The notes under the pieces: model-generated
What the model was told of the DNA's origin: nothing
What the model saw: the letters and a program-made list of their open reading frames with translations, nothing else
Databases searched by the model: none
Part shown: in pieces, positions 21,672 through 24,392 of the stretch
Layout: each line of letters starts with the position of its first letter
Numbering within the stretch: position 1 is the first letter of the stretch
NCBI GenBank assembly: GCA_029858465.1
Contig: JAOUEZ010000001.1
Location: forward strand, 1-31,564
DNA: 31,564 bases
Source of the DNA: Thermoplasmata archaeon
GTDB lineage: Archaea > Thermoplasmatota > Thermoplasmata > UBA10834 > DTMW01
Direction: 5' to 3'
Position numbers and translations under genes: made by a program

Positions 21672-22244
21672 TCAATAGAACCATCCTTGATATTGGCCAG
21701 TCACTGGACAACCCATGCATTTCTTATCCTTGAACGATTGACAATTTCTGCATTGTGAAAGTGTCCCGCACGGCGGGATGTCAGATTGATCCTGAGTCAG
21801 GACCGTAGGGAATATCAGGCTTCTCTCAGATGTTATTACGATGTTGAAATCGAGGTCTGTCACTGATTTGTTCGCCCTCAGGTGACCGTTGACTATCGCC
21901 TCCAATGTCGCGACGCTCTCGCTGAAGAACAGGAGGCAGAGATTGTGCTTGCCAGAAACCGTGAATCCGTTTGCGAAGTATGGACAGTTCTTGAACATTG
22001 ACAGGATTTCCCCCGGCTTGGTCGAGGAGACATCCACCTTGGCGAGATACAGCCCGACCTTCAGAGGATTAATGCCGACTTGAGTCTCAAGGGCGCCGCT
22101 CTTTATGAGTTTCCTTATCCTGACGGCCACGGAGGGTTGTGACAGTCCGATTTTCGTCGCTATCTCATCCTGAGAGACATCGGGATCTCTGGCGAATAAC
22201 GATATTATCATCCTGTCCTTATCATCAATCTTCATCGTTTCCAT
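21672..22244 (-). CDS. Lrp/AsnC-family transcription regulator with C-terminal five-Cys tail
   Basis: N-terminal HTH IDDKDRMII...SQDEIATKIGLSQPSVAVRIRKL, RAM-like domain SGKHNL, tail C-x5-C-x2-C-x7-C-x2-CP. Confidence 0.85.
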   Translation of the reverse strand: METMKIDDKDRMIISLFARDPDVSQDEIATKIGLSQPSVAVRIRKLIKSGALETQVGINPLKVGLYLAKVDVSSTKPGEILSMFKNCPYFANGFTVSGKHNLCLLFFSESVATLEAIVNGHLRANKSVTDLDFNIVITSERSLIFPTVLTQDQSDIPPCGTLSQCRNCQSFKDKKCMGCPVTGQYQGWFY

Positions 22245-22291
22245 GTCCTAATTTGTGAATTATGGGTTTATTGCCAATTATCCTATTTATT

Positions 22292-22364
22292 ATAGAGATT
22301 TATCCTCTATCACTTTCATAAATATTAAAGTTTCTTTTATATTTAATAATGTAATTATGCATAA
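22292..22364. promoter_or_regulatory. Divergent promoter region with inverted repeats
   Basis: ATAGAG-N7-CTCTAT (22292-22310), TATTAAA-N12-TTTAATA (22323-22348) and TTATGCATAA (22355-22364). Confidence 0.4.
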
Positions 22365-22379
22365 CAGAGGTGCGGAAAA

Positions 22380-23675
22380 ATGTCGATGTTCTGTCATCAA
22401 TGCGAGCAGACTGCAGGTGGAACAGGATGCACGATAAGAGGCGTTTGCGGAAAGGATGAGGATATTCAGAGCCTCCAATACATGATACTCTATGGATTGA
22501 AGGGATTGGGGGCGTACGCACATCATGCTAGAAGACTTGGAAAAAGGAGCGAGGAGGTCGACGCTTTCATTGATGAAGCTCTTTTCAAGACCCTGACGAA
22601 TGTCGATTTCTCCCTGGAAGATCATTTTAATGTCGTAATCAAGCTTGGAATGATGAACCTTAAGGCCATGGAGATTTTGGACGCGGGAAATACTGAGCAT
22701 TTCGGCGATCCGACTCCGACCACTGTCAGAACCGGCACGGTCAAAGGACCCGGCATTCTTGTCACAGGTCACGACCTGCTTGATCTCAAGGAGCTTCTCG
22801 AGGCGACCGAGGGATCGGGTGTCAATATATACACACATGGCGAGATGCTGCCCGCGCATGGATACCCGAAGTTAAGGGAATACAAGCATTTGATCGGCAA
22901 CTTTGGCACTTCTTGGCAGCGACAGAAGAAAGAGTTCGCCGAGTTCGGGGGACCGATAGTCGCCTCGACCAACTGCGTGCAGATCCCCACTGATGCCTAC
23001 AGAGACAGGCTTTACACTACAGGAATAACTGCCATCACGGGCGTCAAGCACCTGAAGGATAAATCGGACCTGCCAAAGATAATCGAACATGCAAAAAGCA
23101 TAGGAGATCTGCCGGAAAGAGAAGGAAAGCCTCTCTACACCGGTCACCATCACAAGGCCGTACTGTCTCTCGCACCCAAGATAATCGACGCCATCAAGGC
23201 GGGAAAGATAAGGAGATTCTTCCTCATCGGGGGATGCGACGGCGCAAAGCCCGGCAGGAACTACTACACCGAGTTCGCGGAAAAAGTTCCTAAGGATTGC
23301 GTGATCATCACCCTGGCCTGTGGGAAATACAGATTCAACGACAAAGAGTTCGGATCCATCGACGGAATCCCGCGACTTTTAGACATGGGCCAATGTAACA
23401 ATGCATACTCCGCAATACAGCTCGCTGTCGAGCTTAGCAAAGCCTTCAAATGCGATGTGAACGACCTGCCGCTCTCGTTCGTCCTTTCCTGGTACGAACA
23501 GAAGGCGGTGGCCATACTTGAGACACTACTGGCGCTTGGAATAAAGAATATGAGAATTGGCCCATCTCTTCCCGCCTTTGTAAGCCCGAACATCTGGAAA
23601 GTCCTTCAGGAGAAGTACAACATAATCCCGATAGGTAACGTCGATGAAGACCTGAAAGCCATGCTTGGAGGGTGA
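22380..23675 (+). CDS. hcp: Hybrid cluster protein (hydroxylamine/NO reductase), short class III type
   Basis: MFCHQCEQT..C-x5-CGK (Cx2Cx8Cx5C), TGHD, HGEML, TNC, GGCDG, ACGKY, GQCN, WYEQKA. 431 aa. Confidence 0.94.
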   Translation: MSMFCHQCEQTAGGTGCTIRGVCGKDEDIQSLQYMILYGLKGLGAYAHHARRLGKRSEEVDAFIDEALFKTLTNVDFSLEDHFNVVIKLGMMNLKAMEILDAGNTEHFGDPTPTTVRTGTVKGPGILVTGHDLLDLKELLEATEGSGVNIYTHGEMLPAHGYPKLREYKHLIGNFGTSWQRQKKEFAEFGGPIVASTNCVQIPTDAYRDRLYTTGITAITGVKHLKDKSDLPKIIEHAKSIGDLPEREGKPLYTGHHHKAVLSLAPKIIDAIKAGKIRRFFLIGGCDGAKPGRNYYTEFAEKVPKDCVIITLACGKYRFNDKEFGSIDGIPRLLDMGQCNNAYSAIQLAVELSKAFKCDVNDLPLSFVLSWYEQKAVAILETLLALGIKNMRIGPSLPAFVSPNIWKVLQEKYNIIPIGNVDEDLKAMLGG

Positions 23676-23678
23676 AGT

Positions 23679-24392
23679 ATGGTCGTGAGGAAGATCATCA
23701 ATATCGACGAAGAGAAATGCACAGGCTGCGGACAATGCGTGGTCGCGTGCGCTGAGGGCGCGCTAGAGATCATCGACGGCAAGGCAAAGGTCATCAAGGA
23801 CAGCTTCTGCGATGGCCTGGGAGCTTGCATCGGAGAATGCCCAGAGAGCGCATTGGAGATAATAGAGCGGAATGTGGATGAGTTCGACGAGAAGGCGGTA
23901 GAGAAGCATCTCGAGATAAAGAAGCTGAAGGAAATGACAGAGAAATGCTCCTGTCCTTCGGCAACGCCAATGACTCTGAAAAGAGAGGGGCAGGAACATA
24001 TCTTAAAAGAAGACCGTGAACAGAAGTCCAAGCTGGGCCAGTGGCCCATTCAGCTAATGCTTGTGCCAGAAAGCGCCCCGTTCTTGAAGGGGAAAGATCT
24101 GATTGTGCTCGCGGACTGCGCTGCTGTGGCATACGGAAACCTTCATCGGAAATTCATCGACGGCAACGCGATAGTGATGGGCTGCCCGAAGTTCGACGAT
24201 CTTGAGATATACGAGCGGAAGCTAAAAGGAATTATCAACAACTCAGGCATCAAGAGCATATCCGTCGTAAATATGGAGGTGCCGTGTTGTTTCTCCCTCT
24301 ACCGACTTGTCGCTAAAGTGATGGCAGAGACTGGTAGCAAGATACCGTTCAAGCAATATGTAATCGGTATCGAGGGCGACATACTGACCTGA
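23679..24392 (+). CDS. 4Fe-4S ferredoxin-domain protein of the type commonly paired with hcp
   Basis: CTGCGQCVVAC, CDGLGACIGECP, QWPIQL, ADC, GCPKFDD, MEVPCC. It starts 3 nt after the hcp stop. Confidence 0.85.
   Translation: MVVRKIINIDEEKCTGCGQCVVACAEGALEIIDGKAKVIKDSFCDGLGACIGECPESALEIIERNVDEFDEKAVEKHLEIKKLKEMTEKCSCPSATPMTLKREGQEHILKEDREQKSKLGQWPIQLMLVPESAPFLKGKDLIVLADCAAVAYGNLHRKFIDGNAIVMGCPKFDDLEIYERKLKGIINNSGIKSISVVNMEVPCCFSLYRLVAKVMAETGSKIPFKQYVIGIEGDILT

Follow-up and report, generated by a model that had tools for sequence, protein, structure and literature searches.

Which protein, if any, governs hcp, which encodes the hybrid cluster protein, in archaea is the question raised by a divergent gene pair in the genome of a Thermoplasmata archaeon (GenBank assembly GCA_029858465.1, contig JAOUEZ010000001.1, positions 1 to 31,564; this stretch of 31,564 nucleotides is referred to as the window). 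In the window, an hcp gene lies head-to-head with a gene for an Lrp/AsnC-type regulator that ends in a cysteine-rich tail. To our knowledge, no regulator of hcp or of nitrosative/oxidative stress genes has been described in methanogen-related archaea. An earlier reading of the sequence (the original prediction) had likewise known of no characterised archaeal hcp regulator, in agreement with our literature search, which found neither such a regulator nor a cysteine-tailed or Fe-S Lrp protein. Judged from its sequence, the protein of the window is the first concrete candidate for this role, and we consider it moderately probable that, as a whole, it acts as a metal- or Fe-S-centred, local and autoregulated Lrp-type regulator of hcp and of the ferredoxin-like (FrdX-like) gene that follows it. 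The features of the regulator gene, which include those of an AlphaFold2 (AF2) model and its predicted local distance difference test score (pLDDT), are as follows:

21672 to 22235, minus strand: regulator gene, 187 amino acids plus stop; conserved start MKID; AF2 mean pLDDT 93.5
22095 to 22229, minus strand: winged helix-turn-helix (wHTH), about residues 3-47; Pfam HTH_24 and HTH_AsnC-type
21837 to 22049, minus strand: RAM-type beta-alpha-beta-beta-alpha-beta domain at residues 63-133, from DSSP (AF2 model) and Foldseek
21981 to 21986, minus strand: codons of C84-P85, within the RAM domain
21675 to 21776, minus strand: cysteine-rich C-terminal module, residues 154-187; PPC156-x5-C162-x2-C165-x7-C173-x-G-C176-P-x-T-x2-Y-x-G-x-F/W

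The open reading frame (ORF) at this place spans 21672 to 22244 on the minus strand, where an in-frame upstream ATG at 22244 would add three residues. All 120 proteins in a listing of close homologues (61-83% identity to the regulator) start at the second methionine (MKIDDKD) and have a length of about 187 amino acids, so that the gene most likely extends from 21672 to 22235. Pfam analysis identified an AsnC-type wHTH, with scores of 46.8 bits for HTH_24 (cut-off 21.9) and 39.5 bits for HTH_AsnC-type (cut-off 27). Within its recognition helix, SQPSVAVRIRKL, residues R39 and L43 were invariant in an alignment of 52 proteins of the family (mean column identity 33%), which also served to build the AF2 model. 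The Pfam RAM model PF01037 did not match the regulator, and the NCBIfam models for archaeal LrpA and ChrS covered residues 3-142 with scores below their cut-offs. In the AF2 model, three helices precede a beta-alpha-beta-beta-alpha-beta unit, and Foldseek aligned about 148 columns of the model to the full-length Lrp proteins, or feast/famine regulatory proteins (FFRPs), 7fby, 9w4w, 2cyy, 2e1c and 1i1g (E 1e-8 to 1e-11) with a template modelling (TM) score of 0.8 normalised on the target, which identified a RAM domain despite the PF01037 miss. Taken together, the HTH matches, the modelled RAM unit and the Foldseek alignment led us to conclude that the regulator is a complete Lrp/AsnC (feast/famine-type) protein with about 40 extra C-terminal residues; the HTH and RAM domains named in the original prediction were thus borne out.

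The extra residues were examined in the ORF translation and in the 52-sequence alignment. The tail reads D-I-P-P-C-GTLSQ-C-RN-C-QSFKDKK-C-MG-C-P, exactly the PPC-x5-C-x2-C-x7-C-x2-CP pattern that had been announced, although the module proved to hold six cysteines instead of the five first counted, the sixth being C84 in the RAM domain. C84-P85 and, in the tail, C156, C173 and C176-P177 were invariant in the 52 sequences, both CP dipeptides included, and C162, C165, G175, Y182 and G184 were kept in at least 90% of them. Since the tail cysteines are invariant or nearly so at a mean identity of 33%, they do not represent a chance run of cysteines. In a wider set of 112 family representatives, C84 was found in 106, including proteins with two-cysteine and three-cysteine tails, and 104 of them carried it as C84-P85. 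Of these 106 proteins with C84, 48 have a tail with five cysteines, 27 one with three or four, and 18 one with two, while the tails of the other 13 contain a single cysteine or none. At the position of C84, the archaeal FFRP FL11 has a tyrosine before the same proline. The tail gave no Pfam match even at E 10 and has no relative of solved structure (a PDB sequence profile search with the regulator covered positions 3-143 and ended there), on which grounds a TRASH or other named metal domain was rejected.

Seen from the sequence, then, the cysteine module is an undescribed one with six members, one of them in the RAM domain. That four cysteines are invariant, with a proline after two of them, suggests a tetrahedral metal site or Fe-S cluster common to the RAM domain and the tail, and it is quite likely that the protein binds a metal of some kind. 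With two conserved CxxC pairs, C162-x2-C165 and C173-x2-C176, and with thiol-based regulators known in archaea (PMC9426492), the module could instead be a metal-free thiol-disulfide switch whose CxxC pairs oxidise under oxidative stress and alter DNA binding, as in Pyrococcus SurR. We judge this to be improbable, given that six conserved cysteines, including the distant C84 of the RAM domain and the single C156, exceed what a disulfide switch needs, and that a shorter, three-cysteine variant without the C162/C165 segment has lost one CxxC pair but retains C84, C156, C173 and C176, a set of four that resembles a metal site.

If a metal is bound, its kind matters for the role of the protein. The regulator may be an ordinary effector-sensing Lrp protein in which structural zinc stabilises the C-terminus or the oligomer, the signal being a small molecule in the RAM pocket (an amino acid, or a nitrogen compound such as hydroxylamine), and hcp and frdX would still be under local regulation. 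The complete RAM fold retained in the AF2 model and recognised by Foldseek is compatible with such a protein, as are the shortness of the tail, which was modelled mostly as coil (pLDDT 76-92), the existence of family members with only two or three tail cysteines, and the fact that CxxC pairs commonly form zinc sites. Nevertheless, the invariant C84 lies inside the RAM domain, which means that the change affects the sensory domain itself, the tail is matched by none of the known zinc-ribbon or TRASH models of Pfam, and every clade of the family is found beside Fe-S or redox genes and not beside those of amino-acid metabolism (see below), so we regard the structural zinc site as unlikely. Our preference goes to an Fe-S cluster because of the loop-like cysteine spacings (the tail spacing C-x5-C-x2-C-x7-C presumably resembles known [4Fe-4S] loops), the two invariant CP dipeptides and the Fe-S-rich neighbours in every clade, and also because the forms with fewer tail cysteines recall three-cysteine sensors. 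On balance, the case for a cluster as the metal centre is evenly poised.

The genes on the other side of the intergenic region are the following:

22380 to 23675, plus strand: class III hybrid cluster protein (Hcp) gene, 431 amino acids; N-terminus C-x2-C-x8-C-x5-C; Pfam, NCBIfam
23679 to 24392, plus strand: FrdX-like protein gene, 237 amino acids; N-terminal 2x[4Fe-4S] (dicluster) motif, Pfam Fer4 families

The product of the first gene matched Pfam Prismane (1.1e-139) and the NCBIfam hydroxylamine reductase model (646 bits). Class III Hcps are distinguished by an N-terminal cysteine-rich [4Fe-4S] motif and by the absence of the middle region of about 100 residues present in classes I and II (PMC10502027). 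Residues 2-429 of the Hcp aligned in one piece to residues 64-490 of 7e0l, whereas its alignment to class I and II structures was broken in two with about 110 residues skipped, which places it in class III. The head-to-head arrangement with hcp and a ferredoxin partner stands as originally described; the intergenic distance is 135 nt if counted from the first ATG of the regulator gene and 144 nt from its conserved start. As the FrdX-like gene starts 3 nt after the hcp stop, it is probably co-transcribed with hcp.

We analyzed whether this pairing recurs by collecting the neighbourhoods of 65 family members (up to 7 kb per side), in which simple ORF calls were clustered and recurrent clusters were named by Pfam. 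These calls missed the regulators of loci L020, L061, L063 and L071 and the hcp of L022; L022 and L020 were recovered by eye. Pairing was counted in 20 loci with upstream context whose regulators share at least 52% identity with the query. A class III hcp is the first gene of the divergent operon in 11 of them (the window, L004, L003, L009, L042, L046, L047, L094, L022, L049 and L053); the operon contains a carbon monoxide dehydrogenase (CODH) of 625-639 amino acids in four (L006, L008, L043 and L045), and has only the FrdX-like gene in three (L005, L007 and L020); neither a Prismane-family nor an FrdX-like gene is divergent in the remaining two (L041 and L051). FrdX-like homologues were present in 11 of the 21 loci of the regulator clade. 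In a maximum-likelihood tree, from which the L020 regulator was left off, 18 of the regulators with at least 52% identity formed one clade with 100/99 support, and those of L053 and L010 fell just outside. Neighbour type clustered on this tree, requiring 19 changes compared to a mean of 38.2 with shuffled labels. The CODH genes of L006 and L008, whose products have 6t7j, 6elq and 7b7q as closest solved relatives, are followed by CooF-like, LUD/Fer4 and CCG genes.

The pairing was also inspected in 49 genomes of the window's order and in 401 sampled genomes of the phylum. Within the order, hcp was found in five genomes and the regulator in three; the regulator always adjoins hcp, and in a fourth genome a contig end truncates hcp on the side expected to carry the regulator. 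In the phylum sample, 89 genomes contain hcp, mostly in longer, class I/II-like forms. A class III-type hcp occurs in 14 genomes and has the regulator next door in eight of these, which include every Hcp at least 66% identical to that of the window.

Two observations on individual loci are added here. Genome G216 carries two separate regulator-hcp cassettes (G216:C24:220-2183 and G216:C68:755-2036, corresponding to L094 and L022), in which each of the two regulators shows about 68% identity to the query and both Hcps share 72% identity with that of the window. In L008:213-5761 and L006:1-5210, the operon comprises five genes, for a 625-amino-acid CODH, a CooF-like ferredoxin, a LUD/Fer4 protein, a CCG-domain protein and an FrdX-like protein.

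Two candidate boxes were recognised in the intergenic region:

22282 to 22296, no strand: box 1, 15-bp palindrome CCTATTTATTATAGA (cCTAT-N5-ATAGg), candidate operator
22336 to 22350, no strand: box 2, TTTATATTTAATAAT, a weak candidate at 54 bp from box 1; sixth in the genome, 14.2 bits

Box 1 starts 60 nt before the regulator ATG, with its centre 91 nt before the hcp ATG. It is the sole CTAT-N5-ATAG of the window, and the genome of the organism contains 16 exact matches to this motif. A spacing of seven nucleotides (CTAT-N7-ATAG) was also tried and rejected, as it has no match in the window and N5 fits. We scored all 15-mers of the 1.45-Mb genome with an operator matrix trained only on sites from other genera, which rewards A+T-rich centres. 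With this matrix, devoid of sites from the window's own genus, box 1 ranked first in the genome (18.2 bits). Box 2 overlaps an A+T-rich stretch 30-44 nt before the hcp ATG that resembles the hcp TATA box and, since the matrix favours A+T-rich centres, it may simply be that promoter element. An imperfect direct repeat, TTAT-N7-TTATCCT, at 22268-22284 and 22290-22306 (22-bp spacing) flanks and overlaps box 1, and may provide extra half-sites for an oligomeric regulator.

The box was then followed through the other loci, using 222 kb of locus DNA and the 200-nt stretches 5' of the regulator genes, aligned by start codon. Ten of the 13 exact CTAT-N5-ATAG motifs in the locus DNA fell within these upstream stretches. 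Among the 20 loci, cCTAT-N5-ATAGg was found at about -60 in ten and at about -28 in eight, 31 bp apart where both are present. The same half-sites precede regulators of other clades, which fits their nearly invariant recognition helix; as this is also the case where the neighbour is not hcp, the box tracks the regulator gene and not hcp. In orthologues with a short intergenic region, the -28 box overlaps the expected TATA box of the regulator gene, with the -60 box situated just upstream of the TFB recognition element (BRE)/TATA stretch of hcp. By analogy with the position rules known for archaeal regulators, this arrangement suggests autorepression together with control of hcp from the upstream site.

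These data also bear on whether the two genes could be mere neighbours, with the regulator acting elsewhere and the palindrome being no more than promoter sequence of two divergent genes. The overlap of the -28 box with the expected TATA box of a leaderless regulator mRNA, and of box 2 with the likely hcp TATA box, are what such an arrangement would produce. Nonetheless, it is highly improbable in view of the pairing, which persists in several families of the phylum although the flanking genes differ, and of the palindrome, whose outer G/C positions are conserved, which occurs only 16 times in the genome and which follows the regulator to loci with other neighbours. We consider a regulatory link between the protein and hcp-frdX to be likely.

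To delimit the family, an exhaustive search was performed (50% clusters as representatives, E <1e-10), which yielded 225 representatives; the five-cysteine tail was present in 56 of the best 150. Named members and clusters comprise archaeal taxa only: Thermoplasmatota, Methanobacteriota, Thermoproteota, Bathyarchaeota, Helarchaeota and a Jordarchaeum. In the 401 phylum genomes, about 66 matches, spread over 55 genomes, reach the end of the profile, whereas ordinary Lrp genes stop near position 145. The regulators of a sister clade (41-48% identity; L050, L052 and L055-L060) face a DUF5320 gene, a gene for an NTPase of ParA/NUBPL type that has Fer4 motifs, and a NifX-like gene. Those of other clades face either a B12-binding radical SAM gene accompanied by a Mut7-C gene, or DsrE, MvhD-like and HdrA-like genes. 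The neighbour sets of the sister clades are thus all Fe-S-rich or redox-related, and the family is not hcp-specific. A check proposed with the original prediction, namely whether tailed homologues co-locate with hcp or other redox genes, gave a positive answer, with hcp, CODH relatives and other Fe-S/redox genes as neighbours. Tandem double-Lrp forms of 345-381 amino acids (P0127, P0137, P0158, P0159, P0171 and P0174), which match the query twice, were also observed in the family and have shorter C-terminal cysteine motifs.

Among known systems, FFRPs are the closest scaffold relatives of the regulator, CopR is its closest working analogue and the bacterial hcp regulators are its closest functional analogues. 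Lrp/AsnC (FFRP) proteins bind palindromic, A+T-rich operators of 13-15 bp, usually control their own genes, accommodate an amino-acid effector between RAM domains and assemble from dimers to octamers; several archaeal members have a divergent target gene. FL11/PH1519 (2cyy, 2e1c), PH0140 (7fby, 9w4w) and LrpA (1i1g) share the two-domain wHTH and RAM fold with the regulator. The archaeal FFRPs likewise have a 15-bp palindromic box with an A+T-rich centre before their own genes, which in the window is a predicted site. The regulator differs from them by its approximately 40 additional C-terminal residues with five conserved cysteines, by the cysteine that takes the place of tyrosine before the RAM proline, and by its location next to Fe-S/redox genes instead of amino-acid metabolism genes.

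The TRASH domain, a C-terminal metal sensor, has the spacing C-x19-22-C-x3-C. It is carried by CopR/CopT (Pyrococcus furiosus PF0739), archaeal Lrp-type copper regulators, of which CopR is encoded divergently from its target copA (PMC7830388). The regulator of the window resembles CopR in joining an Lrp-type scaffold to a C-terminal cysteine-based module (a metal sensor in CopR, a predicted one here), and in having a divergent target, here a predicted one, with a joint promoter region; in CopR a metal replaces amino acids as effector, and the same is predicted here. In contrast to CopR, its tail has no TRASH/YHS match and a spacing of C-x5-C-x2-C-x7-C-x2-C, and its target would be hcp or CODH instead of a copper ATPase.

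In bacteria, hcp is regulated by NsrR (Rrf2 family, [4Fe-4S]), HcpR (Crp/Fnr family), FNR or OxyR, and hcp-frdX forms the core regulon of HcpR in delta-proteobacteria and clostridia (PMC1274295). The regulator of the window would act on this same operon, and the design recurs, with a palindromic site before hcp and often a divergent regulator gene; if an Fe-S cluster is present in the regulator, the logic of NsrR and FNR would be matched as well. However, the protein family is unrelated and the archaeal host uses TBP/TFB-type promoters. No Rrf2 model (Rrf2-type wHTH, three-cysteine cluster loop) was among the Pfam or NCBIfam matches of the regulator, whose fold is that of Lrp, and neither of the Crp/Fnr domains (cNMP-binding-like beta-barrel, Crp-type HTH) was found in it by Pfam or NCBIfam.

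Starting from the fold, the conserved cysteines, the gene pairing and the box, we propose a mechanism in which DNA binding at the box, metal binding and the kind of metal, the signal and the sign of regulation are all predictions. The usual effector domain would have been rebuilt into a cysteine-ligated metal centre formed by C84, C156, C173 and C176, with C162/C165 as an added pair. The regulator would bind cCTAT-N5-ATAGg in the 144-nt region common to its own gene and the divergent hcp-frdX operon, and from this palindrome would control both. DNA binding or the shape of the oligomer would depend on the condition of this metal centre, which is most likely an Fe-S cluster labile to O2 or NO, like those of NsrR, FNR or WhiB-type sensors, so that damage to Fe-S chemistry by nitrosative or oxidative stress would lead to the production of Hcp. 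That NO or an oxidant is the signal is put forward only tentatively.

Several observations weigh against this reading. Four to six cysteines, to judge by the sequence, are as compatible with structural zinc as with an Fe-S cluster. The box partly coincides with the expected regulator TATA if the mRNA is leaderless, and some of its conservation could be that of a promoter. The next-best matrix matches in the genome (C213, C159, C197, C77, C193 and C199), some of them intragenic, are not beside redox genes, so that the predicted regulon is local and no wider regulon backs the stress reading. Loci of related genomes are, moreover, non-independent samples. Finally, the regulator stands beside hcp in only eight of the 89 hcp-bearing genomes of the phylum sample and, since these eight include every Hcp at least 66% identical to that of the window, it belongs to one hcp/CODH cassette lineage and is not a general archaeal hcp regulator. 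The control of hcp that had been predicted for it holds up in part: conserved pairing and the intergenic palindrome speak for it, whereas the family is not hcp-specific and most hcp genes of the phylum have no such neighbour.

A broader proposal, which we consider rather doubtful, is that the six-cysteine Lrp proteins constitute a new, archaea-wide class of RAM-based Fe-S transcription sensors, in which one sensor would here govern both Prismane branches (class III Hcp and CODH) through NO or CO gas or oxidant damage, as an archaeal counterpart of NsrR, HcpR and CooA. Should the cysteines ligate an Fe-S cluster, the RAM domain would become a further cluster-sensing scaffold besides Rrf2, Crp/Fnr and Wbl. 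Given the presence of the family in Thermoplasmatota, methanogens, Bathyarchaeia, Thermoproteota and Asgard archaea, it could explain how Fe-S-rich enzymes are tuned in many anaerobic archaea. The locus offers a compact test system, with a protein of 187 amino acids, an intergenic region of 144 bp and one strong 15-bp box.

The second gene of the divergent operon was also analyzed. In delta-proteobacteria and clostridia, frdX is a ferredoxin-like gene that follows hcp (PMC1274295), and the 237-amino-acid protein recalls it by architecture alone. PMC10502027 raises the question of which electron partner class III Hcp uses physiologically, and the conserved FrdX-like gene is a candidate for it. 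The C-terminal half of its product is a cysteine-bearing alpha/beta domain of about 115 amino acids with the invariant motifs WPxQ, DC, GCPKxD and MEVPCC. This domain matched no Pfam model and, by sequence, no PDB entry, and Foldseek returned generic alpha/beta matches only (E >0.004). The whole arrangement is flanked by a gene for a Na+/H+ exchanger (20360-21655) and, at its other end, by genes for a PiT phosphate transporter and a PhoU-like DUF47 protein (24662-26365), and both the exchanger and the PiT/DUF47 flanks recur in L004, a relative of the same genus.

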